Source: an uncultured Gammaproteobacteria bacterium (lineage in GTDB: Bacteria; Patescibacteriota; Patescibacteriia; SBBC01; CAIJZX01). Taken from it: DNA of 64,000 nucleotides. The translations under genes were made by a program, and so were the position numbers. Shown here piece after piece: positions 10,938 through 40,059 of the stretch; the first letter of the stretch is position 1, and each line of letters opens with the position of its first letter. The stretch lies in the NCBI GenBank assembly GCA_964397195.1, contig CAYNGY010000001.1:269415-333414 (forward strand). The letters are read 5' to 3'. The notes beneath the pieces were generated by a model. The model saw nothing but the letters and a program-made list of their open reading frames with translations. It made no database searches and had not been told where the DNA came from.

Positions 10938-12224
10938 ATGGCTGAAATAAAAAAAAGCCAGACATCGAACTCCAAGAAAACGCTCGTCCAAAATCCGCCA
11001 ACATCGAAGGCGGTTGTTTCGCGCCCAAAAAAAACGAGCGCCTCGTCAACTGTTGTTAGTCCTGCCTGGACCCAGAAAACGGCGCCCGTCATAAAATCGG
11101 CGCCGGCCAAGTCGACGCCATCCGTTCCACTGGCAAATCAAGTGTCAGTTTGGCCGTGGCTGTGGGTGGTCCTGCCGAGCCTTGGAGGATCACTATGGTG
11201 GTGGTGGACGCTAGCGAAAGTCTTGGCACCGCGGCAAGTCGCCTGGACGGCGCCGGAGTTGCTGTGGTATCTCTCGATGGCGCTGGTGGCGATGGCGGTA
11301 ATGGTTGGTCCGGCCATGCTCGGCGGTTTCGTCATTCGCGCTCGACGCTGGATCCCGTTGATCGGATTTCTAGTATCACTCCAAGCCGTCTGGTTCTTCG
11401 CCATCGACTGGGCGACGGTCGTCGCGATCGGATCGTTCACCATCGGCATCTGGCTCGCCAGCGAAGGTGTCCGACGCGAAACCTCGAGTCGTTTACGGCT
11501 TGATATACGGAGCTCATTGGCGCATGTCATGGCCTGGGTCATCCTCAGTCTTTCGATTGCGGTTTCGGTCCTCCACTTTTCAGCGGCCCAACAGTCGCTC
11601 GATCCGGTACAGGACGTGAATCGATTGATTACACGGGTGGTTTCCGTATCGGAGCGCCTCGTGGTGCAGTTTTATCCGGCCTATCAACCCGAAATGACGA
11701 TTGATGAGTTAATTGGTGAGCAAATCCCGACCACCGATGAACTCTTGCACTCGCTGACTTCAAAGACCAACTGGTCCGGCGATGAGCGGCAGCAGATCAT
11801 TGACCGCCTCTCTTCCCTTGGTATCTCAGGGTTACAGGTCCCGCCAGCCGGCGCCAAGATTGACGTCGTCCGAACTGCACTTGATACAGAATTGGCGGCG
11901 GCCCGTGGGGAGATGTTAAAAGAACTACGGAGCGGAGTTAGTCAACAGCTCGGGATTGAGCTTGATGGGTCGGAGACGGTTCATGCGGCCTTAACACGAT
12001 TGGCGGATAGTCGGATTCGGTCCCGTGGTTCGGCGTTTATAAAATTCTTACCGCCAATTCTCTCATTAAGTATTTTTCTGGCGCTCCGGTTATTAAGCCC
12101 GCTGCTCGAGCTGATCGTTGTCGCCGCCGGGTGGCTGTGGTATCGCATCCTCCGGTCGGCCCACATTCTGCAAATTCGCACCGAACCGGCCGTGGCCGAG
12201 CGGCTCCGGTGGGGGAGTCATTAG
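10938..12224 (+). CDS. hypothetical polytopic membrane protein
   Basis: 428 aa with several predicted TM helices and a Ser/Thr/Lys-rich N-terminus. Confidence 0.7.
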   Translation: MAEIKKSQTSNSKKTLVQNPPTSKAVVSRPKKTSASSTVVSPAWTQKTAPVIKSAPAKSTPSVPLANQVSVWPWLWVVLPSLGGSLWWWWTLAKVLAPRQVAWTAPELLWYLSMALVAMAVMVGPAMLGGFVIRARRWIPLIGFLVSLQAVWFFAIDWATVVAIGSFTIGIWLASEGVRRETSSRLRLDIRSSLAHVMAWVILSLSIAVSVLHFSAAQQSLDPVQDVNRLITRVVSVSERLVVQFYPAYQPEMTIDELIGEQIPTTDELLHSLTSKTNWSGDERQQIIDRLSSLGISGLQVPPAGAKIDVVRTALDTELAAARGEMLKELRSGVSQQLGIELDGSETVHAALTRLADSRIRSRGSAFIKFLPPILSLSIFLALRLLSPLLELIVVAAGWLWYRILRSAHILQIRTEPAVAERLRWGSH

Positions 12225-12247
12225 CACTCTTGCCAAGAGAGTGCTAA
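12221..12247. promoter_or_regulatory. CIRCE operator (HrcA binding site) upstream of dnaJ
   Basis: TTAGCACTC-N9-GAGTGCTAA matches the CIRCE consensus exactly; 22 bp upstream of the dnaJ start. Confidence 0.85.
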
Positions 12248-12268
12248 TTCTGCTAGGCTACGTCCATT

Positions 12269-13354
12269 ATGGCGGCTGATTACTACGACCTCCTGGGGGT
12301 CTCGCGCACGGCGAATGCTGACGAAATCAAGAAAGCGTTTCGGGCGAAGGCGCATCAATTCCACCCTGATAAATCCACGGGCGACGCGGAGAAGTTTAAG
12401 CAAATCAACGAAGCCTATCAAGTGCTGAGTGACGCTGAAAAGCGCCAGCAGTACGACCAGTACGGCCAAACCTTTGATCAAGCCCGCCGTCAGGGCGGCG
12501 CCCCGGGCGGCGATCCGTTCGGTGGCTTCGGTGGGTTCCAGGGCGGAAATGTCGACTTCGGCGATCTTGGTGATATGTTCGGCGACATGTTTGGTTTTGG
12601 CGGATCAACGCGAGCAACAAAGCAACATCGCGGTCGCGATATCGCCGTGAGCATGGACGTGCCGTTTCAATATGTCATCGATGGCGGGGAACAGCGGATC
12701 ACCATCAAACGACTCCTCCAGTGTGAACGCTGTCATGGCCAAGGCGCCGAACCGGGCAGTGATCGCGCCACCTGTACCACCTGCCAAGGGAGCGGCCAGG
12801 TTCGTCAGGTCCAGCGGACGATTCTCGGAGCGATGCAGTCAGTTCAGGCCTGTCCCACCTGCGAAGGCGAAGGGACAACGATCAAGACGCGCTGTGACCA
12901 GTGTCGTGGCGAGGGGCGGATCGAAAAAGCTGAGCCACTCTCCGTAAAAATTCCGCCTGGTATTTCCGCCGGCCAGAAAATTCGAATTAACGGCCAAGGT
13001 GAGGCCGGGCGCCGGGGTGCCCCAGCGGGTGACCTCTATATTACCATCATCGTTGCCGAAGATGCCCGATTCGTCCGTGATGGCGACGATTTAACCATGA
13101 CCCGATCCATCCCGCTCTCGACCGCCACCTTGGGGGGCACCATCGACGTCCCGACTGTCGAAAAGGATGTGACCCTCAAAATCCCAAACGGGACGCCAAG
13201 CGGGCGGGAATTCATTATTCGTGGTCAGGGCGTGCCGCATCTCCGCGGACGGGGACGTGGCGATCTACGGGTCAAAGTTGAGGTTGTGATTCCGGCCAAG
13301 CTGAGCGCCAAGGCTAAGAAGCTGTTGAAGGATCTGCAGGCCGAAGGGCTGTAA
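12269..13354 (+). CDS. dnaJ: molecular chaperone DnaJ
   Basis: J-domain with HPD motif (AHQFHPDK), G/F-rich region, four CxxCxGxG zinc-finger repeats. Confidence 0.95.
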   Translation: MAADYYDLLGVSRTANADEIKKAFRAKAHQFHPDKSTGDAEKFKQINEAYQVLSDAEKRQQYDQYGQTFDQARRQGGAPGGDPFGGFGGFQGGNVDFGDLGDMFGDMFGFGGSTRATKQHRGRDIAVSMDVPFQYVIDGGEQRITIKRLLQCERCHGQGAEPGSDRATCTTCQGSGQVRQVQRTILGAMQSVQACPTCEGEGTTIKTRCDQCRGEGRIEKAEPLSVKIPPGISAGQKIRINGQGEAGRRGAPAGDLYITIIVAEDARFVRDGDDLTMTRSIPLSTATLGGTIDVPTVEKDVTLKIPNGTPSGREFIIRGQGVPHLRGRGRGDLRVKVEVVIPAKLSAKAKKLLKDLQAEGL

Positions 13355-13427
13355 TCCGTGTGGATAACTTGCCAAATGGGCTTTTTTGTGCTATACTCAC
13401 ATTTGCTAGAAATCAAATACATAGGAC

Positions 13428-14015
13428 ATGCCAACCGTAGCCTCGCTCGTCAGTAGTCAGACACAGGCAAAATCATTTGTGGCGTCAGTCGATTGGGCCC
13501 ATCCGAGCTGGGACCTGTTTATCATCCTTTTCTTCGTCGTCGCGGCGCTCTTATATGGGCTCTCCCTTGGTCGCGATCGGGTGATAGTTATCCTAATCTC
13601 CGTCTACATGGCCCTGGCGGTCGTCAATTCGGCGCCGGGCATCGGAAACTACCAGGCTGATATTGGTGTTGACCAGTTCTTTGTCTTCCGCGTTTCGGCC
13701 TTCGTGGTCGTGTTTGTCGCTCTCTTTTTCCTGATGTCGCGCTCGGCCTTGTTGGCCACGGTCGCCTCGTCGGACAAGGCAGGGTCGTGGTGGCAAGTGC
13801 TGTTCTTTAGTTTCTTGCATGTTGGGCTCCTGATCTCGATCACGCTGTCTTTCCTGCCACCGTCGGCATCGGCCCACCTCGCACCGCTCACCCAAAAGAT
13901 TTTTGTTCAGGATACTTCGCGATTCCTCTGGATTGTCGCACCAATTTTAGCGATGATCTTGATTAAAGGGGGAGCCGCCAAGACCCGCCGTCGCCGTGAA
14001 GACGACGACGATTAA
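13428..14015 (+). CDS. hypothetical membrane protein
   Basis: 195 aa, about 5 TM helices, acidic C-terminal tail. Confidence 0.65.
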   Translation: MPTVASLVSSQTQAKSFVASVDWAHPSWDLFIILFFVVAALLYGLSLGRDRVIVILISVYMALAVVNSAPGIGNYQADIGVDQFFVFRVSAFVVVFVALFFLMSRSALLATVASSDKAGSWWQVLFFSFLHVGLLISITLSFLPPSASAHLAPLTQKIFVQDTSRFLWIVAPILAMILIKGGAAKTRRRREDDDD

Positions 14016-17502: not shown

Positions 17503-18531
17503 TTAAGCTTCAGTCGATCCGGCCTGAGCGTCCGGTGTCGTTGAAGGTCGACCTTTGTTTTCATGATTATTGAAACACTCGAGATCCGCCGCCCATTCCG
17601 TGAGAACAATCTCGACATCTTTTGCGGTGACTGTGGGCGTTGAATCTTCCTGTTGTTTTTGAATCGCGCGCAGACGGACTTTCGCCGCCGCTTCATCCAT
17701 GGCATCAATCGCTTTGTCCGGAAAGTGGCGGTCGGGGAGAACGGTAGCGGAACGATCGACGGCCTCGCGAATTGCGTCATCTGAAATCGTCACCCCATGA
17801 TGTTTTTCGTATCGTGACTTCAAGCCCTGCAAGATGGCGACGGTTTCCGTCGCGCTCGGCTCTTTGACGAAGACTGGTTGGAACCGTCGCTCGAGGGTTA
17901 CGTCTTTGACGATCTTCTGTTCATACTCACCCTCGGTCGTTGCGCCGATTGCCTGAAGTTCACCGCGCGCGAGCGCCGGTTTCAGAATGTCGGCCGCGTC
18001 AATCGCCCCGGTTGCTTCGCCGGCTTCGGCGAGCGTGTGTAGTTCGTCGATAAACAAAATAATATTTCGTTGTGAGGCTACAACTTCATCGAGGATGGCT
18101 TTCAGTCGTTTTTCAAATTCGCCACGATACTTTGTCCCGGCCACGAGTCCGGAAAGATCGAGCGCAAGAATGCGCTTCCCGCGGAGTGGGGAGGGGACAG
18201 TGCCAGTGGAAATCATATTTGCTAAGCCCTCGACGATCGCCGTTTTTCCGACGCCGGAATGTCCGACGAGTACGGCATTATTTTTTGTGCGTCGGGACAG
18301 GATCTCGATGACACGATCAATTTCATGTTGACGCCCAATCACCGGATCAAGTTTGCCGCTCCGTCCGAGCGCCGTTAGATCTTGCGAATAGAGACCGATG
18401 ATTGAGCCGCGCACGCGATACCGAATATTTTCGCGGAGGAGGACAACGCCGAAGACAAGAAAAATTCCGGCAAAGACAAAGAGCGCGATCCAGCCAGTCG
18501 GAGTTGAAATGAAATCAAGAAAAGCGTTCAT
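17503..18531 (-). CDS. membrane-anchored Clp/Hsp100-like AAA+ ATPase (single nucleotide-binding domain)
   Basis: 342 aa: N-terminal TM, then a ClpA/B D1-like domain ([15 protein letters not shown], Walker [10 protein letters not shown], sensor motifs); no second AAA domain. Confidence 0.8.
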
Positions 18532-18540
18532 GGTCGCGGA

Positions 18541-18684
18541 TTACGATTGGGACGTCGAAAGAATGATCCCGAGCACCGCCAAGCCAAGTGCGCCAACCGC
18601 GGCGAGAATAATAACCCCGACCGATACCTTCTTGGCCACCGACGTTTTTGTGGTGGTCACCGTTTGCTGTCGAGAAGTGTTCAT
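18541..18684 (-). CDS. 47-aa single-TM peptide, translationally coupled
   Basis: MNTSRQQTVTTTKTSVAKKVSVGVIILAAVGALGLAVLGIILSTSQS; its ATG overlaps the upstream stop as ATGA; below the ORF-track size cutoff. Confidence 0.45.
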   Translation of the reverse strand: MNTSRQQTVTTTKTSVAKKVSVGVIILAAVGALGLAVLGIILSTSQS

Positions 18685-19406
18685 GTGCGCAACATCAAGA
18701 CGAGAAAGAAGACGGCCGCACTCGCCATCACGTAGCCGAAGGTCAGGCGTGCGTTGGCGGGGATGACGGTTGTCGAAGTCGGTTCCGAAACATGAGCGGT
18801 CTGAGCATTCTTGACGCGGTGAAGCCCAAGGGCAATTCGTTCGTGTTGATCGGTCGTAAGATGCACATCAAGTTTTTCGAGATGTGTTTCTAGACCTTGA
18901 ATAATGAGTCGGACACGATCGGCCGCGCCTCGAGCCTGTGCAGTGAGCGCTACTTGTTGGGCACAATCTTTGAGCAGTGCTTCACATGAACGAGTGAGCA
19001 ATTCTTCCGCCGTGATGTGGGACTGATCAGCCATGGAATCAGCGAGATGGTGAATCGTTCCGGCCGGTGTTTCGCCGACCACCAACAGAAACTTTGGATG
19101 ATAGATGAGCTGGAGGTCAATCCCGACTACACCGCCGGTCGTGCGCCACGGTATGACCAGCTGGAGGTGGCAATACGAACGGTACACATCGATCGCTGAT
19201 TCACGGGGGATGGCCTCAAGCTTCTCGACATCAAGCGGGTGGATACCAAATTCACCGATCAGTCGCTTGACATCGGTTTCATCGAGATGCGTCGCGCGGA
19301 CGAATAACGCCGCGCTTGTTTGGCTGACATGAATTGACATTTTTCCTTTGGTTTTTTGCTTTTCTGACGTTATTGTAGCACGTTTTTCGACAAAAGTCAA
19401 CTTCAA
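18681..19406 (-). CDS. hypothetical protein with C-terminal TM (CorA-like N-terminal fold possible)
   Basis: 241 aa, single C-terminal TM; first gene of a three-gene minus-strand operon. Confidence 0.55.
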   Translation of the reverse strand: MKLTFVEKRATITSEKQKTKGKMSIHVSQTSAALFVRATHLDETDVKRLIGEFGIHPLDVEKLEAIPRESAIDVYRSYCHLQLVIPWRTTGGVVGIDLQLIYHPKFLLVVGETPAGTIHHLADSMADQSHITAEELLTRSCEALLKDCAQQVALTAQARGAADRVRLIIQGLETHLEKLDVHLTTDQHERIALGLHRVKNAQTAHVSEPTSTTVIPANARLTFGYVMASAAVFFLVLMLRT

Positions 19407-19446
19407 TAAATATGATTCAGGGCGACCGTGCGACGGTCGCCCTGAG
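19401..19446 (-). terminator. rho-independent terminator (minus strand)
   Basis: Perfect 11-bp stem CAGGGCGACCG/CGGTCGCCCTG followed by a T-rich run on the minus strand. Confidence 0.75.
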
Positions 19447-19463
19447 GTGCGTTTCGAGAGCGG

Positions 19464-20141
19464 CTAGTAGTTGCCGCTCGGGAGCGTGTTGACGGTGATG
19501 ACCGCCTCGCTGGACTTCGACCCGGAGTAGGACGTGACCAGCAGGTGAACGGTCTGACCGATGTTCTGGAATGTGAATCGAACACCGTGGACGCGTTCGA
19601 TCATGCCGGGTCGCCCGCGCTCGTCCGGCCGATTCATCGACTCGAGTGCCAGGCAGCGATCGGCGCCGGCGCGAGGTCCGTGTTTGAAGACGGACTCCAG
19701 GTCGTCGGGATCAGCCAAGTAATCGATCTCGACTCCGGTGATCACCGGCCCGCCCTGAGGAACGACCCAGAGCGTGAAGCCCCGAGCGCCGTCGGTCCAG
19801 ACTTGGCCGCCGCCGTAGAGCGTTTCGGCCTTGAGCGGCCGACGCCGGTTGTGAGACAGCGGATCAGGCAGGGCATTCCACCGGACGACGTACCGCGGCT
19901 CGACCATCACGCCCTCGGTGCTACTGCGCTGCGAGGCCGCGCGGCCATCACCGTGGTGGTGACCGGCGTTGCTGGCGTCGAAAACGACTTCGAAAACGCC
20001 GCTTCGCGCATGGACACCGTTGCCGGTGACCGTGACGCTCGGCTTCTCGCGCGGTGCGATCTTGACGCGGGCGTCGGCCATGGTGGTGAAGCCGATGAGC
20101 GCCATCAGGATCAACGCGAACTGCATGAACTTGTTGCGCAT
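19464..20141 (-). CDS. hypothetical secreted protein (high-GC)
   Basis: 225 aa, signal peptide MRNKFMQFALILMALIGFTTMADA, GGAGG SD. Confidence 0.65.
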   Translation of the reverse strand: MRNKFMQFALILMALIGFTTMADARVKIAPREKPSVTVTGNGVHARSGVFEVVFDASNAGHHHGDGRAASQRSSTEGVMVEPRYVVRWNALPDPLSHNRRRPLKAETLYGGGQVWTDGARGFTLWVVPQGGPVITGVEIDYLADPDDLESVFKHGPRAGADRCLALESMNRPDERGRPGMIERVHGVRFTFQNIGQTVHLLVTSYSGSKSSEAVITVNTLPSGNY

Positions 20142-20650: not shown

Positions 20651-21121
20651 ATGGCAGAAGGCCAAATACACACACCAGAACGACCGTCATTTGCCCCACC
20701 GGAAGTTGGGCCGGTTGATATTGAATCCAAGGTCGAGCATCCGACTCCGTCCGTAGATACGACGATGGTGCATGAAGTCGTACCCATCACCCCAATCATC
20801 CCAGTCAATGCTCAGCCGATGATGGATGCGGATGGCACGACGTCGGCGCTAACGAAGCGGGTCGAAGACATCATGGTGGCCGGTCTCGCCGAGACGTATG
20901 CCCAACTTGATCCGGCCACGCAAGCCAAGTTCAAGGCTGAAGGTGAACGCACGGCCGGACTGATTTCTGATATGTTGGCCACGGCTAAGATCCACGTCAA
21001 AAAAATCGTCGATCTGCTCGTCGCCTGGTTACGCATTGTGCCGGGCGTCAATAAATACTTTCTTGAACAAGAGGCAAAAATCAAGGCCGACAAACTGTTG
21101 GCGTTAAAAAAGAAGTCATGA
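20651..21121 (+). CDS. hypothetical protein
   Basis: 156 aa; extended -10 (TGTGATATAAT) just upstream; ATGA-coupled to the next gene. Confidence 0.6.
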   Translation: MAEGQIHTPERPSFAPPEVGPVDIESKVEHPTPSVDTTMVHEVVPITPIIPVNAQPMMDADGTTSALTKRVEDIMVAGLAETYAQLDPATQAKFKAEGERTAGLISDMLATAKIHVKKIVDLLVAWLRIVPGVNKYFLEQEAKIKADKLLALKKKS

Positions 21122-23637
21122 ACCCTGATAGCGCCGAGTTTATCGATTTGAATGCGCGTCCGCTGATGATCAGTCCATGGTGGTGGGTCGCGCTCGCGAC
21201 AGTCGTCGCCTTCGTGATCGCTGTGATCGTAATTCGGTACCTGACTCACAAACTGAATCGAATTCCGCGGGCGATGGAATATGTCGTACTGCTCGTTTTA
21301 CTCCCGCGCGAAACGCTGAAACTCGAACAACAGAATAAAGATTGGCGGGATGTCTTAGCCGGGTTTGAAACGCTCTACCTGACCTTGGCCGGTGTTCGAC
21401 TCGAACATGGCGGGTCTTTCGCCAAAGCCTGGCGCCATTTTTGGTTCGGCCGCCACGATCATCTTTCACTCGAGATCGTTTCGACCAAAGGACAAATTCA
21501 ATTCTACCTCGCTGTGCCACGCGCCGTGCGCCAACTGGTTGAACTTCAGATTCAGGCGCAGTACCCGCAAGCGGACATCGAAGAAGCCGAAGACTACAAT
21601 TTGTTCGCCGCGAACTCAACTATCCGCGGAACGATGCTTCGTCTGACGAAGCCCTTCTTTTTTCCGATCCGGACGTATCGGAAGCTCGATAGCGATCCGC
21701 TCAATGCCATTACGAATGTCCTGAGCAAAGTCCAGCCGCAAGAAGGCGCGGCCATCCAGATTCTCATTCGCCCGAAATCTTCGAACTGGAATAGTCGTGG
21801 TCGGCATATTGCCCGCGCCATGCAAGAAGGGAAAACGCTCGGCGAAGCCATGGGCAAGTCCGGCGGTAATGTGTTACTGGCCTCATTAAAAACCGAAAGC
21901 GATCGGTATAAGCAACCGAAGACGCCGTACGTCACGCCGATGGACCAAGAGCTGATACGGACGATGGAGGAAAAAGCGGGGAAGCCCGGTTTTGATGCCA
22001 ACATCCGCATCGTCACAGCTTCACCACTCGCTCCGAATGCTGACGTCCACCTCGAAAATATCGTCAACGCTTTCAGTCAATTTATCGCCCCAGAGTCGGG
22101 CAATCAATTTCGTCGCACCAGCATCGTCAGCTCGAGTCAACTGATTAGCGATTTTATCTTTCGGCATTTCGAGAATGGACGCCGCCTCGTCTTGACGAGC
22201 GAGGAGCTGAATAGTATCTATCACTTCCCGCTCCCGCAGACTGAGACGCCGAATATTCAATGGCTCGCGGCCAAACAAGCCGCGGCGCCGGTCAATTTGC
22301 CGAGTGACGGAATCACGCTTGGTCATAATGTCTTCCGCGGTCACGACGCCGTGATCAAATTAAAACCGAACGATCGCCGTCGCCATGTCTACGTGATTGG
22401 GACGACCGGATCAGGAAAAACGGTACTGATGCAAGAAATGGCCAAACAGGATATTCGCAATGGCGAAGGCGTTTGTATTGTTGATCCGCACGGGAGTTTT
22501 GTCGACGACGTCTTGCCCTGCATTCCGCCGTCGCGCATGCATGACGTCATTCTGTTTGATCCGTCGGATGTCGATCGGCCGATGGGGCTCAATATGCTCG
22601 AGGCTCGCTCACCGGAAGAGCGTGACTTTGCCGTCCAGGAGATGATTGCCATCTTCATGAAACTGTTCCCGCCGGAAATGATCGGGCCGATGTTTGAACA
22701 CAACATGCGGAACGCGATGTTGACGCTGATGGAAGACGACGAACATCCGGGAACGATTGCGGATATCCCGCGCATGTTCACCGATAAAACATTCCAGCAA
22801 TACAAAATTTCGAAAGTGAAAGACCCGGTCGTTCGGGCGTTCTGGGAGAAAGAGATGGCGAAGACGAGCGATTTCCATAAATCCGAAATGCTCGGCTACC
22901 TAATTTCAAAGGTTGGGCGATTTATTGAGAACTCGATGATGCGTAACATCATCGGACAACCAAAATCAGGGTTCAATTTTCGGGCGGTCATGGACGAACG
23001 CAAAATCTTGTTGGTGAATCTCTCGAAAGGAAAAATTGGCGAAGTCAACGCGGCGCTGCTCGGGCTAATCATCGTTTCGAAATTGCAGATGGCTGCCCTT
23101 GGTCGGGCGAACGTCACCGAACTAAATCGGCCGGATTTCTTCCTCTATATTGATGAGTTCCAAAACTTTATTACCGATTCAATTGCGACAATTCTATCGG
23201 AGGCCCGAAAATATAAATTGAATCTGACCATGGCCCATCAATATATGGGGCAACTCGTCCAGGGCACAGACACGCGAGTGCGGGATGCGGTGCTCGGCAA
23301 CGTGGGGACAATGGTCGCCTTCCGAATTGGTGTCGAAGATGCGGAAGTGCTTGATAAACAATTTGCTCCGACTTTTACGGCTTTCGATTTGGTCAACCAG
23401 CAGCGCTTTACCGCGTACGTTCGTCTCCTAATCGATAATACGGCCGCGCCGCCGTTTCATATGCAGACCTACCCATCCACGATTGGCCAGACGACGGTGG
23501 GTGAGGCGATCAAACAATACTCGCGCCTGCGCTACGGGAAAGGCCGCGCCGTGGTCGAGGCCGAAATTCTTGAGCGGACAAAGTTGGGCACCGTCACCGC
23601 GGGCGCGACGCCACTCCCACCAGAACCGTCTCGCTGA
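21118..23637 (+). CDS. VirD4/TraG/TraD-like type IV coupling protein family ATPase (membrane-anchored)
   Basis: 839 aa, N-terminal TM, Walker A GTTGSGKT, Walker B FLYIDEFQNF, overall T4CP-like architecture. Confidence 0.8.
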   Translation: MNPDSAEFIDLNARPLMISPWWWVALATVVAFVIAVIVIRYLTHKLNRIPRAMEYVVLLVLLPRETLKLEQQNKDWRDVLAGFETLYLTLAGVRLEHGGSFAKAWRHFWFGRHDHLSLEIVSTKGQIQFYLAVPRAVRQLVELQIQAQYPQADIEEAEDYNLFAANSTIRGTMLRLTKPFFFPIRTYRKLDSDPLNAITNVLSKVQPQEGAAIQILIRPKSSNWNSRGRHIARAMQEGKTLGEAMGKSGGNVLLASLKTESDRYKQPKTPYVTPMDQELIRTMEEKAGKPGFDANIRIVTASPLAPNADVHLENIVNAFSQFIAPESGNQFRRTSIVSSSQLISDFIFRHFENGRRLVLTSEELNSIYHFPLPQTETPNIQWLAAKQAAAPVNLPSDGITLGHNVFRGHDAVIKLKPNDRRRHVYVIGTTGSGKTVLMQEMAKQDIRNGEGVCIVDPHGSFVDDVLPCIPPSRMHDVILFDPSDVDRPMGLNMLEARSPEERDFAVQEMIAIFMKLFPPEMIGPMFEHNMRNAMLTLMEDDEHPGTIADIPRMFTDKTFQQYKISKVKDPVVRAFWEKEMAKTSDFHKSEMLGYLISKVGRFIENSMMRNIIGQPKSGFNFRAVMDERKILLVNLSKGKIGEVNAALLGLIIVSKLQMAALGRANVTELNRPDFFLYIDEFQNFITDSIATILSEARKYKLNLTMAHQYMGQLVQGTDTRVRDAVLGNVGTMVAFRIGVEDAEVLDKQFAPTFTAFDLVNQQRFTAYVRLLIDNTAAPPFHMQTYPSTIGQTTVGEAIKQYSRLRYGKGRAVVEAEILERTKLGTVTAGATPLPPEPSR

Positions 23638-24907: not shown

Positions 24908-24961
24908 GCGGCCTTGCTCGGGGAGCGCCAGTAGCGTACACTGGTGACGCACACGCGTCCC

Positions 24962-26614
24962 ATGGCCGAAACACTTTATCGAAAATACCGTCCCCAGTCG
25001 TTTGCCGATGTTGTCGGCCAGCGGCATATTCGCGTTACGCTTGAGCACGCGCTCCAAACGGACCGGGTTGCCCACGCCTACATGTTTACCGGACCCCGCG
25101 GCGTCGGGAAGACCACGACCGCCAGAATCCTGGCCCGGGCCGTGAATTGCGAGAAGCGTGGGCAGAACATTGAGCCATGTAATGCCTGTCCGTCATGTTT
25201 GGCCATCCTCCACAATCAAACCTTGGATCTGATTGAGATCGACGCGGCCTCGCAAACCGGCGTCGATAACGTTCGTGACAATATTATTCAGGGGGCACGA
25301 ATGGCACCGGTCATCTTGAAGCAGAAGATCTTCATTATTGATGAGGTCCACATGTTGTCGCTGGCGGCATTTAATGCTCTGCTGAAGATTCTCGAAGAAC
25401 CGCCGGCTCATGTCATGTTTATCTTGGCCACAACGGAGATTCACCGTGTCCCGGAAACGATTATCTCGCGGACGCAGCGTTTCGATTTCCAACGAGTTGG
25501 CTTCGATGACACCGTCCAACGTATTATCAGCGTCGCCCGACAAGAAAAGCGGTCGCTTGGTCGCGGAGTGGCTGAACGGATCGCCCGCGCCTCTGGCGGA
25601 AGTTTGCGCGATGCGGAAAGTATTCTCGGTCAAGTTCTGGCCTTCCCGGATACAGATGTGACGATCGAGCTTCTGAATATGATCATGCCGCGGAGCGATC
25701 AAACCACCGTTCTGAATATGATCGAGGCTATTTTACCGGGCCGAGCGGCCGAGGCGATTCAGTATTTTCATCAATTCGTGGCCGATGGTGGCGACGTGAC
25801 GACCTGCGTTCAAGACGTGTTAACAATGACCCGGCACCTGCTTCTTTTAGTAACGGATCCGGATGGCATGCTGAGCGCCATGAAGTCGCTCGATCCGACG
25901 ACATTGGAACGCTTACGACATATGGCCAGCAACGCCGACCAAGAACGGTGTCTCCGTATTATTGATACCTTTACCGAAGCGGTGCGTCAGGTGGCCTACG
26001 CCACCATCGAAGAGTTACCGGTCGAAGTGGCGATTGTCCGTGCCAGTGGCATCGATCAATCGGGGTCAGTACCGGCCACCCTGACTGGCGGCGTGGAACA
26101 GGCCGCACCCACACGAACAATCCCACGTCCAGCCACGCCGAAGAAAGCCGACGCTACTCCTTCCGAGCAGACGCAGCCGATCAAGGCGGCGACGAAACGG
26201 ACAGCCGCCGTCACTCTCGAGCAATTCCAGCAGGCGTGGCGCGCGCTGCAACAATCCTCATCACTCCCGCCGGGCTTAGCCCTCTCGGTCAAGCAGGCGA
26301 GTGTCACCGCTATGAATGGAGAACTTATCGAACTAACCGTGCCATTTGCTCTCCACGCGGATCGTTTAAACAGTGCCAAGAATCTGGAACTCATTCGTCA
26401 GTATATCGCGCCCGAATACGCGGACTACACCTTCCGGGCCCTCGTCGATTCTTCACTCGCTCCGGCCGATTTACCACCGCGCGAAGAGCCGACTATGTCA
26501 GCCACATCAACCGCTAAGCCAGTCACGACCACTCCGGCGCTCGTCGTGTCACCAGTTGCGGTCACGACCGGCGATGAGTTATGGGACAACCTCGTCGCCT
26601 CACTTGATTCATAG
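24962..26614 (+). CDS. dnaX: DNA polymerase III subunit gamma/tau
   Basis: AAA+ clamp-loader motifs (GPRGVGKTT, zinc module CNACPSC, DEVHML), Pro/Thr-rich C-terminus; start chosen at MAETLYRKYRP. Confidence 0.9.
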   Translation: MAETLYRKYRPQSFADVVGQRHIRVTLEHALQTDRVAHAYMFTGPRGVGKTTTARILARAVNCEKRGQNIEPCNACPSCLAILHNQTLDLIEIDAASQTGVDNVRDNIIQGARMAPVILKQKIFIIDEVHMLSLAAFNALLKILEEPPAHVMFILATTEIHRVPETIISRTQRFDFQRVGFDDTVQRIISVARQEKRSLGRGVAERIARASGGSLRDAESILGQVLAFPDTDVTIELLNMIMPRSDQTTVLNMIEAILPGRAAEAIQYFHQFVADGGDVTTCVQDVLTMTRHLLLLVTDPDGMLSAMKSLDPTTLERLRHMASNADQERCLRIIDTFTEAVRQVAYATIEELPVEVAIVRASGIDQSGSVPATLTGGVEQAAPTRTIPRPATPKKADATPSEQTQPIKAATKRTAAVTLEQFQQAWRALQQSSSLPPGLALSVKQASVTAMNGELIELTVPFALHADRLNSAKNLELIRQYIAPEYADYTFRALVDSSLAPADLPPREEPTMSATSTAKPVTTTPALVVSPVAVTTGDELWDNLVASLDS

Positions 26615-26659: not shown

Positions 26660-27151
26660 TTGCCTATGCGCAAAATCTTATCAGGACTCGTCCTCGGCGC
26701 CTTTGTTATTGGTGCTGGATACGGGTTAGTCGGTTTTCAAACTCGGCCCGCGGATGCCACGGGTACAGAAAATGAAAACCACAATGGGAACGTGAACACG
26801 AATACGTCGACAGACGCCGGTCGTGTCGCGTGCGTTCTAGCCGCAGTTGGTCCGCGGGAGACGGCTATTCTCGCCTCATGGAACACCTACAGCGCCGCGA
26901 TCAAAGCCGCCTACGAAAAGCGCGCCACCGATCTCACGGCTGCTTGGAGCATCACTGATAAGAAGGCTCGGAAGACCGCCATCAAAAAAGCGTGGACCGA
27001 TTTCAAATCGAGCCGCAAGATGGCACGAAAAACCTTCAACAACGAGCGCTCAAACACCTGGAAGACATTCGAAAAAGCACGCAAGGCCTGCAACGTCCAA
27101 AGTGAAGGCTTTGGGAGCAGCGACGACGGACAACCAACTCACCGCGACTAA
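26660..27151 (+). CDS. hypothetical secreted protein
   Basis: 163 aa, signal peptide, Lys-rich repeats. Confidence 0.6.
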   Translation: MPMRKILSGLVLGAFVIGAGYGLVGFQTRPADATGTENENHNGNVNTNTSTDAGRVACVLAAVGPRETAILASWNTYSAAIKAAYEKRATDLTAAWSITDKKARKTAIKKAWTDFKSSRKMARKTFNNERSNTWKTFEKARKACNVQSEGFGSSDDGQPTHRD

Positions 27152-27172
27152 CCGTCCGTCCGTGCATCGAAT

Positions 27173-27205
27173 CCCGCTCCGCCTCTGGCGGAGCGGTTTC
27201 GTTTC
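27173..27205 (+). terminator. rho-independent terminator
   Basis: CCCGCTCCGCC-tctg-GCGGAGCGG followed by TTTCGTTTCC. Confidence 0.75.
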
Positions 27206-27207
27206 CG

Positions 27208-27236
27208 TTGACGAAAAAAAGAAAATCTCGTATACT
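27208..27236 (+). promoter_or_regulatory. sigma70-type promoter for tRNA-Gln
   Basis: TTGACG, 17-bp spacer, TATACT about 50 nt upstream of the tRNA. Confidence 0.6.
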
Positions 27237-27290
27237 CCGCTCGCTCGTTTCCGACCTTCACGGCGGAACACTCTATACGGGCACGTATCT

Positions 27291-27364
27291 TCCGGGATCG
27301 TCTAATGGTAGGACTCCAGGTTCTGGACCTGGCTATCTTGGTTCGAATCCAGGTCCCGGAGCCA
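27291..27364 (+). tRNA. tRNA-Gln (anticodon CTG), CCA encoded
   Basis: Cloverleaf folded by hand: 7-bp acceptor TCCGGGA/TCCCGGA, D-arm GTCT/GGAC, anticodon loop TTCTGGA, T-arm CTTGG-TTCGAAT-CCAGG, 3' GCCA. Confidence 0.85.
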
Positions 27365-27503
27365 TGGCGAAAGCGGCCGAACAAGCGTCGGCCGTCTTCG
27401 CCATTGATGGCTTGGCCTGGATTCGAAGGGCAGAAGCGATCCCGAGTTAGCCGAGGGGAGCGATCGGCGAGGTGCCGGTGGCACGTCGCCGCTGCCCAGG
27501 ATC

Positions 27504-27524
27504 GAAATCCAGGTCCCGGAGCCA
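27504..27524 (+). repeat. direct repeat of the tRNA-Gln 3' end (T-arm/acceptor/CCA), att-like
   Basis: 18 nt identical (ATCCAGGTCCCGGAGCCA) plus similar flanking bases 160 bp downstream of the tRNA; does not fold into a second tRNA. Confidence 0.7.
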
Positions 27525-27525
27525 A

Positions 27526-27567
27526 GGGTCTGACGCCCACCAACACGGTGAGTCGCAGACCCTTTTT
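27526..27567 (+). terminator. rho-independent terminator
   Basis: GGGTCTG...CAGACCC stem followed by TTTTT. Confidence 0.65.
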
Positions 27568-27655
27568 GGGCTCACGAGGTCTAGGACAACGACGCACCTC
27601 CGGCCAGGAAAGTTCGATTTTCCCGATGGGTGACGGTGATGTATACTTGCTGTAC

Positions 27656-28282
27656 ATGGAATTCACGTTATCAATAAAAACCGTTTTTGCCGGACTCTCC
27701 ATCGGCATTACCGCGGTTGGTGGCTTCTGGCCATATTTTCGTGACATCTTTCGACGCAAGACCACGCCGCATGCCTACACGTGGTTGATTTGGTCCTTGA
27801 CGCAAGGAACGGCGTTGGTGGGTCTCTGGTATGGCGATGGTGGCTGGGCGGTCATACCGATGCTGGCCGGGACGATCCTTGTTTTTCTTACCTTCCTCCT
27901 GTCGCTCCGTTTCGGTTCAAAAAGTATCACGCGGTTTGATACAATCATTCTCATCGCCGCTCTCGGCGCCATCATCGTCTGGTGGCAACTGCATAATCCA
28001 TGGTTATCTGTGTTGATGGTGACCATGATCGACGTCATTGGCTATGTGCCAAGCTTCCGAAAGACCTATCGCGAACCGTGGTCTGAAACCGTGGTCTCGT
28101 GGCTGATCTTCGCGGTCACGAATCTGTTTTCCATCGCTGCCCTCAGTTCATATAATTTCTACACGCTGACCTATTTGGTGGCCATCACCGTCGCCAATGT
28201 CGTGCTGTTGGCCATCAGCATTCTCCGTCGACGGACGATCCCGTATCCAAACTATGATAGAGTTACACCGAAATATAGCTAA
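27656..28282 (+). CDS. hypothetical polytopic membrane protein
   Basis: About 208 aa from the internal ATG; the longer ORF from 27305 would run through the tRNA and is rejected. Confidence 0.6.
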   Translation: MEFTLSIKTVFAGLSIGITAVGGFWPYFRDIFRRKTTPHAYTWLIWSLTQGTALVGLWYGDGGWAVIPMLAGTILVFLTFLLSLRFGSKSITRFDTIILIAALGAIIVWWQLHNPWLSVLMVTMIDVIGYVPSFRKTYREPWSETVVSWLIFAVTNLFSIAALSSYNFYTLTYLVAITVANVVLLAISILRRRTIPYPNYDRVTPKYS

Positions 28283-39255: not shown

Positions 39256-40059
39256 ATGGCTACAAAAAAGGTAAAGGAATTTCGGTATTTCGACCAACCC
39301 GATTTTCGGCTGTATAAGGGTGATTGTATTGAAGTTCTCAATGGTCTAAAAGAAAACTATTTTGATATGATCTTCGCCGATCCGCCGTACATGTTATCGA
39401 ACGGTGGGTTTACGGTTCACGCTGGAAAACGCGTCAGCGTAAATAAAGGAAAATGGGATGAAAGCAAGGGGGCAAAAGAAGATTTTGAGTTTCACGAAAA
39501 ATGGATTGCAGCCTGTCGCCGAGTCCTCAAACCCGATGGCACTATTTGGATTAGTGGGACCTATCATTCAATATATGCCTGTGGGTTCGCACTTCAACTG
39601 CAGGGTTTCAAGATCCTTAATGACATCGCTTGGTTTAAGCCCAACGCGAGTCCGAACTTGAGTGGCAGGTATTTTACCGCTAGTCATGAAACTTTGATCT
39701 GGGCGAGGAAGGATCCAAAGGCGAAGCATACCTTCAATTATAAGCTAATGAAAACCGGCGACTGGAACGGTGATTTTCTGAAGAATCCAGGCAAACAAAT
39801 GCGGAGTGTTTGGGCAATCGGGACGCCCAAGGCGGCTGAAAAGACTTTCGGGAAACACCCGACGCAAAAATCTTTAGCATTACTAGAGCGCATTGTTCTG
39901 GCTTCAACCAACAAAGGGGCGAGAATTCTTGATCCATTTTCGGGAAGCTCAACGACTGGGATAGCGGCCGTGAAACATGGTCGGGAGTTTGTTGGGGTTG
40001 ATATTGACCATAAATTTTTATCACTTTCAAAAATGCGTTATCAAGCCGAGAAAGGTTAA
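39256..40059 (+). CDS. type II DNA methyltransferase, beta-class N6-adenine/N4-cytosine (DPPY)
   Basis: 267 aa; motif IV DPPY precedes motif I LDPFSGSSTTG (beta-class order); AT-rich segment. Confidence 0.85.
   Translation: MATKKVKEFRYFDQPDFRLYKGDCIEVLNGLKENYFDMIFADPPYMLSNGGFTVHAGKRVSVNKGKWDESKGAKEDFEFHEKWIAACRRVLKPDGTIWISGTYHSIYACGFALQLQGFKILNDIAWFKPNASPNLSGRYFTASHETLIWARKDPKAKHTFNYKLMKTGDWNGDFLKNPGKQMRSVWAIGTPKAAEKTFGKHPTQKSLALLERIVLASTNKGARILDPFSGSSTTGIAAVKHGREFVGVDIDHKFLSLSKMRYQAEKG

Follow-up and report, generated by a model that had tools for sequence, protein, structure and literature searches.

Organization of the dnaJ locus

The dnaJ gene described here lies in a 64-kb window – the whole stretch of 64,000 nucleotides that was analysed, within a 477-kb contig – that has a G+C content of 56%. 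It stands between two genes for membrane proteins, all three on the forward strand, and is preceded by an inverted repeat of the CIRCE type. The features referred to below are as follows.

10938-12224, + strand: upstream multi-pass membrane-protein gene, 428 aa, strongly hydrophobic product; TAG stop codon (12222-12224) inside the CIRCE left arm
12221-12247, strand not applicable: CIRCE operator, 18/18 consensus bases, unique in the window, kept in nine relatives
12221-12229: CIRCE left arm, TTAGCACTC
12230-12238: CIRCE spacer, TTGCCAAGA
12239-12247: CIRCE right arm, GAGTGCTAA
12230-12235, + strand: putative -35 element TTGCCA, occupying CIRCE spacer positions 1-6; TTG invariant in the alignment of relatives (A1)
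12251-12259, + strand: putative extended -10 element TGcTAGGCT (TG at 12251-12252, hexamer at 12254-12259)
12265-12268 (~12266), + strand: predicted transcription start zone, placed from the position of the -10; 0-4 nt leader
12269-13354, + strand: dnaJ, type I, 361 aa, with J domain, G/F region, zinc finger, and C-terminal domain
13428-14015, + strand: downstream membrane-protein gene, 195 aa, syntenic with dnaJ even in outgroups

The dnaJ product matches the families PF00226, PF00684, PF01556, and TIGR02349, the last of these in a profile search at 408 bits, above its cutoff of 377. It has a J domain, a G/F-rich linker, four CXXCXGXG zinc-finger repeats, and a C-terminal substrate-binding domain, and so belongs to the type I DnaJ proteins. 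The start codon at 12269 is unambiguous: the open reading frame offers no earlier start, and residue 4 is already the first of the J domain. An identical DnaJ is also encoded on a 12.5-kb Logan contig of SRR12487045. Searches with Patescibacteria HrcA, GrpE, DnaK, and Hsp20 queries (tblastn) gave no match across the 64-kb window, and dnaJ is therefore an orphan there. The first-pass annotation had reported an orphan dnaJ directly downstream of CIRCE with no adjacent grpE or dnaK; this description holds, and the absence of both genes extends to the whole 64 kb.

The upstream open reading frame has no Pfam or NCBIfam family match, and its product is homologous to that of the gene preceding CIRCE and dnaJ in L169 (27% identity, E=2e-29). 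The product of the downstream membrane-protein gene is 42% identical to that of the gene after dnaJ in L003. A promoter scan calls a site for this gene at 13369-13397 (TTGCCA-17-TATACT with a TG), and no terminator was found between dnaJ and the gene.

Several other genes in the window were considered as chaperone or chaperone-related genes. Downstream open reading frames of 624, 556, 364, and 325 aa were rejected as dnaK, groEL, or hrcA, the frame at 24944-26614, for example, being dnaX. Three AAA-like frames at 17503-20141 were likewise rejected as a broken clpB, since all relatives have an intact 342-aa AAA+ gene with intact neighbours. This gene (17503-18531, - strand) codes for a stand-alone, single-module AAA+ protein (AAA + AAA_lid_9, Clp/Hsp100-like), has no CIRCE upstream, adjoins a CorA-like gene (18681-19406), and occupies the same position in L083, L085, and L168-L173. 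The 839-aa frame at 21118-23637 (+ strand) occupies the position of a VirD4/TraG-like coupling ATPase gene in relatives (DUF8128, T4SS-DNA_transf, TrwB_AAD_bind; e.g. L083:18005-20527), with clade-wide synteny, and by position and size only it may be a candidate for such an ATPase. The single RNA gene in the window is a tRNA-Gln(CTG) at 27291-27364 (+ strand). Because the open reading frames at 27148-27765 (- strand) and 27305-28282 (+ strand) both overlap this tRNA gene, at least their listed starts are probably wrong.

The CIRCE element and its conservation

The element at 12221-12247 has the sequence TTAGCACTCTTGCCAAGAGAGTGCTAA, that is, TTAGCACTC-ttgccaaga-GAGTGCTAA, and agrees at 18/18 bases with the CIRCE consensus, TTAGCACTC-N9-GAGTGCTAA (PMC8762339). 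It had been annotated from the sequence as a textbook CIRCE with 9/9 bases in both arms that overlaps the stop codon of the upstream gene, and both observations are borne out, the TAG at 12222-12224 lying within the left arm. The close placement before dnaJ also stands, but the distance given then, 22 bp, is off by one at most: 21 nt (12248-12268) separate CIRCE from the ATG. With up to three mismatches allowed, this is the sole match to the CIRCE pattern in the window, and it has no mismatch. The chance expectation at that threshold is 0.02, and by our own arithmetic an exact 18-base match would be expected about 1e-6 times (64000 x 4^-18). Looser core patterns recovered no second CIRCE, nor did a scan for the relaxed motif of chlamydiae, TAGCA-N15-TGCTA(A), give any window site beyond 12221-12247.

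Immediately after the right arm the sequence reads TTCTGCTAGG. No T-run follows CIRCE, and no terminator-like site was found in 11900-12400. CIRCE was considered as an intrinsic terminator of the upstream gene, for which a G+C-rich hairpin followed by a T-run would be expected, and was rejected for lack of the T-run.

Nine independent relatives with DnaJ proteins 56-82% identical to that of the window have a CIRCE with 0-1 mismatch, which stops 20-23 nt short of the dnaJ ATG. The DnaJ identities are 82% for L082, 73% for L083/84, 67% for L086/87, 64% for L085, 62% for L168 and for L173, 59% for L169, and 56% for L170. The closest named relative with the same locus structure is Candidatus Kerfeldbacteria bacterium GCA_016193315.1 (L169), and the source clade, judged by these comparisons, belongs to Patescibacteria and appears Kerfeldbacteria-like. 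Gene order is conserved as well, running from the membrane protein through CIRCE, dnaJ, the 195-aa membrane protein, (DUF5666), Dus, and CysS to the small AAA+ gene; the membrane proteins upstream of dnaJ in the relatives are homologous. In L168-L170, CIRCE lies in an intergenic region of 117-180 bp, away from the upstream gene, and the element thus belongs with dnaJ rather than with the upstream stop codon. The stop-codon overlap appears to be a peculiarity of the sub-branch to which the window belongs.

An alignment of the 90 nt before the coding sequence (A1) separates a small number of fixed positions from a variable background. Both arms are invariant except at one G/C position, as are the first three spacer bases (TTG), a T following the right arm, a TG, the T-A...T of the following hexamer, and ATGGC at the start of the gene. 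All remaining non-coding columns vary, and no conserved promoter-like motif was found upstream of CIRCE. The element thus joins an inverted-repeat match to a place 5′ of a class I chaperone gene and to conservation at orthologous loci, and on these comparative grounds CIRCE at 12221-12247 can be regarded as functional and not as a product of chance. Control of dnaJ by CIRCE, as proposed in the first-pass annotation, is strongly supported, because the distance to the ATG is fixed in the nine relatives while the surrounding non-coding bases vary. We consider it very probable that 12221-12247 is a functional HrcA operator controlling dnaJ, and it is reasonable to suppose that the source organism has an HrcA regulon.

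The surroundings of the conserved unit differ among the genomes. In the operons of outgroups, dnaK and dnaJ have a DUF3467 gene between them (e.g. L053:9017-9337); in most clade members this gene is found just upstream of the membrane-protein/CIRCE/dnaJ unit (L085:8430-8714, L168:1237-1521, L169:8408-8692, L170:8435-8752, and L173:8086-8376). L083/L084, which have window-like synteny, have no DUF3467 gene at that place. In both the window and L083/L084, a ribosomal-protein/SecY/Adk/Map/RuvX cluster abuts the region upstream of CIRCE-dnaJ, a juxtaposition that would indicate rearrangement.

A putative promoter within CIRCE

The conserved bases outside the arms resemble the two halves of a sigma-70-type promoter with an extended -10. 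For such a promoter driving a leaderless mRNA one would look for hexamers 16-18 nt apart, a TG, a -10 that ends some 6-12 nt ahead of the start codon, and the absence of a Shine-Dalgarno motif. In the relatives, the putative -35 takes the forms TTGCCA, TTGCAT, TTGACC, and TTGCCT. In the window the candidate -10 hexamer follows the -35 after 18 nt and precedes the ATG by 9 nt; the TG lies 3 nt and the hexamer 6 nt after the CIRCE right arm, and the right arm makes up the greater part of the stretch between the -35 and the -10. The conserved form of the extended -10 is TGnTAnnnT, in which the TG and T-A...T are invariant and the inner bases vary in all relatives, giving the hexamers TAGGCT, TAGACT, TACCGT, TACGAT, TAGTCT, TATCCT, and TAGAGT among the window and its relatives. 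Across the clade the -35/-10 spacing is 17-18 nt and the -10 ends 8-12 nt before the ATG. No Shine-Dalgarno motif precedes dnaJ, and positions 12260-12268 show no conservation.

One could also read TGnTAnnnT as part of an enlarged operator instead of a -10, and L173 bears on this choice. There the -35 is shifted by 2 nt within the spacer, CCTTGACCA, and the -10 moves along with it so that the 17-nt spacing is kept; a functional -35/-10 pair should behave in this way, an extended operator should not. A similar arrangement is seen at CIRCE elements before hrcA in outgroups, namely TTGACA-17-TATTAT in L053, TTGACA-18-TACCAT in L103, and TTGACA-18-TAATAT in L156, and the hexamer TTGCCA itself is the -35 of the scan-called promoter at 13369-13397, 1.1 kb downstream. 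The main weakness of the promoter assignment is that the -10, TAGGCT, matches the consensus at 3/6 positions. A generic promoter scan called nothing in 11900-12400, and it misses the dnaJ site because of this 3/6 match. On balance we favour a dnaJ promoter embedded in CIRCE that would give a leaderless or near-leaderless mRNA, two features that do not figure in the first-pass annotation.

Alternative readings of the element

Alternatively, dnaJ might be read from a promoter further upstream, within the last part of the coding sequence for the membrane protein, or share a transcript with its upstream neighbour; CIRCE would then lie in the 5′ leader, HrcA bound downstream of the start site would act as a roadblock, and the hairpin would in addition lower the stability or translation of the mRNA. 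A CIRCE downstream of the transcription start site is the classical layout in Bacillus subtilis, where the element is reportedly so placed. Consistent with this layout, no terminator intervenes between the co-oriented upstream gene and CIRCE in the window, L082, L083, L086, and L173, where the gene reaches directly into the element, and the region, folded as RNA, would form a stable hairpin (MFE -34.7 kcal/mol, z=-2.3). However, the alignment shows no conserved promoter-like motif upstream of CIRCE, and the element in L168-L170 is preceded by unrelated intergenic sequence rich in G+C. A leader containing CIRCE would also leave the invariant TTG/TGnTAnnnT pair, its 17-18 nt spacing, and the co-shift in L173 unexplained, and initiation of translation would be hard to explain with 21 nt lacking a Shine-Dalgarno motif after a strong hairpin. 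We therefore view a Bacillus-type leader at dnaJ as rather unlikely. With the promoter embedded in CIRCE, by contrast, the element would be absent from the transcript and the RNA hairpin would be irrelevant.

The palindrome might also act independently of HrcA, either bound by another protein in a genome that lacks hrcA or as a 3′-end stabiliser or terminator of the upstream mRNA. No hrcA was found in the 64-kb window, and the different palindrome before dnaK and dnaJ in L172, described below, suggests that operators in this group can be swapped. Nonetheless, retention of an 18/18 HrcA-operator consensus across nine genomes is hard to explain otherwise, HrcA is encoded next to CIRCE in nearby lineages, and we know of no CIRCE-binding protein other than HrcA. 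The terminator version is further opposed by the lack of a T-run, and by the position of the element in L168-L170, more than 100 bp from the upstream gene with its distance to dnaJ kept. We consider an HrcA-independent role very improbable as a whole, and a genome without hrcA in which another protein reads CIRCE is much less likely than HrcA control. A chance inverted repeat without function, which would fit the presence of a sole copy in the window, is refuted by the 0.02 matches expected at up to three mismatches and by the conservation of position and sequence in nine relatives, and its probability is negligible.

Probable origin of the CIRCE-dnaJ arrangement

Patescibacteria outside the clade carry a CIRCE-hrcA-grpE-(hsp20)-dnaK...dnaJ operon. 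In L156 (51%), L053, L003, and L103, CIRCE stands directly before hrcA and 3.5-5.3 kb upstream of dnaJ, and many non-Patescibacteria show this layout too; the usual CIRCE-dnaJ distance is taken from a scan of genome contigs with DnaJ, which covers relatives at <=47% identity. The outgroup hrcA open reading frames score 72-74 bits against PF01628. An HrcA search with the L156 protein returned Falkowbacteria-type sequences for all of the top 120 matches, and with the DnaK C-terminal fragment from L085 as query, a protein search returned short fragments only.

Canonical HrcA has about 340 aa. The Patescibacteria proteins are short, at 228-239 aa (L053:4511-5224, L003:5419-6138, and L156:2708-3394), and match only profile positions ~80-215 of PF01628 in addition to an N-terminal winged-helix region. 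By these matches, Patescibacteria HrcA appears to be a trimmed form of the repressor.

In L085, dnaK is still 9.3 kb upstream of dnaJ, and in L171 and L172 (DnaJ 54-55%) the two genes are 8-10 kb apart; neither L171 nor L172 has a CIRCE before dnaJ. L172 instead has an element of about 60 nt with a near-palindromic core, AATGACCAATTGGGCATT, at L172:41-102 and L172:9918-9977. These are its sole copies in 21 kb, one preceding dnaK and the other dnaJ, and they align with a score of 53 against a shuffle maximum of 26; the element was not found in L171. This palindrome may be a different shared operator that has replaced CIRCE.

L103, with a CIRCE spacer one base different from that of the window, was considered as a clade member and rejected on account of its compact hrcA-grpE-dnaK-x-dnaJ operon; its DnaK is 62% identical to that of L172 (the clade sister), among the lowest values of the loci compared.

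Because outgroups keep CIRCE before hrcA, and L171 and L172 are without CIRCE at dnaJ, the dnaJ-proximal CIRCE is best read as a derived trait of one clade, gained after dnaJ left the operon. The CIRCE-dnaJ cassette probably arose when dnaJ separated from hrcA-grpE-dnaK, by copying of the operon's CIRCE-promoter unit.

Putative leaderless-type starts in the window and in other Patescibacteria

Promoter-like patterns of the kind seen before dnaJ are found elsewhere in the window. Shine-Dalgarno motifs are rare before its genes, and TAnnnT is enriched at -17..-12 before start codons window-wide (13 observed vs 2.2 expected, P=5e-7). Promoters of leaderless type are seen at 39256 (TTGACA-17-TAAGAT-6-ATG), 35407 (TGcTATACT-8-ATG), and 20651 (TATAAT-6-ATG). 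Many window genes have a -10-like hexamer just 6-9 nt before the ATG, as at the starts 53960/54521 and 10938. Together these patterns suggest widespread leaderless mRNAs in the source Patescibacteria genome; a literature search returned nothing specific on leaderless mRNAs in CPR.

A second embedded design occurs in other Patescibacteria, where a -10-like TATAAT, TATAAA, or TATAT lies within the CIRCE spacer (L003:5399-5425, L004:5241-5267, L108:812-838, L110:6697-6723, and L133:8707-8733). The ATG follows the CIRCE right arm after 1-2 nt in L004 and L110, and is further downstream in L003, L108, and L133. Such a design would imply short or absent leaders.

Discussion

We propose that in the Kerfeldbacteria-like clade the HrcA operator and the core promoter of dnaJ form one unit of about 40 bp. 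Transcription would start 0-4 nt before the ATG, so that the mRNA would be leaderless or nearly so and would lack CIRCE. In the absence of stress, an HrcA dimer seated on both arms would deny RNA polymerase access to the -35/spacer region. Under stress, the chaperones on which HrcA activity depends would be titrated by unfolded proteins, and with HrcA released from the operator dnaJ would be transcribed. This full explanation, combining an HrcA operator, an embedded promoter, and (near-)leaderless dnaJ, appears to us probable from the sequence comparisons. The wider proposal, in which CIRCE is a self-contained, portable operator-promoter cassette of about 40 bp that was copied from the hrcA operon to an orphaned dnaJ and has a leaderless output, with another palindrome taking the same role in L172, we regard as evenly balanced.

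These observations extend the HrcA/CIRCE heat-shock circuit to an uncultured, reduced-genome, Kerfeldbacteria-like clade of Patescibacteria, and a literature search found no paper linking CIRCE/HrcA with Patescibacteria. They indicate that a co-chaperone gene that has gone from the operon can stay co-regulated through its own copy of the operator. The element at 12221-12247 is, as we read it, an ordinary regulatory element, compactly packaged, and what is known of CIRCE/HrcA itself is unchanged by the dnaJ finding; what is new is the host lineage and the compact packaging, with the -35 in the spacer and the predicted leaderless output. An operator, a promoter, and a leaderless start within about 50 bp make a compact and testable model of gene control in a host group for which almost no regulatory biology is known, and one that could help in annotating promoters and start sites in CPR genomes.

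Among bacterial heat-shock repressor circuits, CIRCE/HrcA is the most widespread (PMC8762339), and several described systems can be set beside the window. The B. subtilis-type circuit, with hrcA-grpE-dnaK-dnaJ and groESL, has an identical operator consensus before a class I chaperone gene and, presumably, the same repression by HrcA that is relieved when unfolded proteins titrate the chaperones. It differs in that dnaJ in the window is alone, far from hrcA, grpE, and dnaK, and in that the promoter here is apparently inside the operator, with CIRCE not in the transcript and an mRNA that looks leaderless.

The lactococcal dnaJ has a conventional leader with a ribosome-binding site. The likeness between Lactococcus lactis MG1363 and the window is a separate CIRCE copy before a dnaJ unlinked from hrcA-grpE-dnaK, although the two belong to different phyla, Bacillota and Patescibacteria. 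In MG1363 this unlinked dnaJ with its own CIRCE is co-expressed with other HrcA targets (PMC3547956).

The hrcA operons of L053, L103, and L156 share with the window the perfect arms and the putative promoter design, in which a -35-like hexamer (TTGACA in these operons) begins the spacer and a -10-like hexamer follows after 17-18 nt, and in L103 the spacer, TTGACAAGA, is one base different from the window's TTGCCAAGA. In these operons, however, the cassette precedes hrcA and dnaJ is last in the operon region, whereas in the window it stands directly before dnaJ. In chlamydiae, whose reduced genome lacks a heat-shock sigma factor, the CIRCE sites bound by HrcA lie 'within or near' sigma-66 promoters (PMC8762339). 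The chlamydial system resembles that proposed for the window in having an HrcA operator within or near the promoter, and differs in its targets, which are hrcA-grpE-dnaK and groESL and not a solitary dnaJ.
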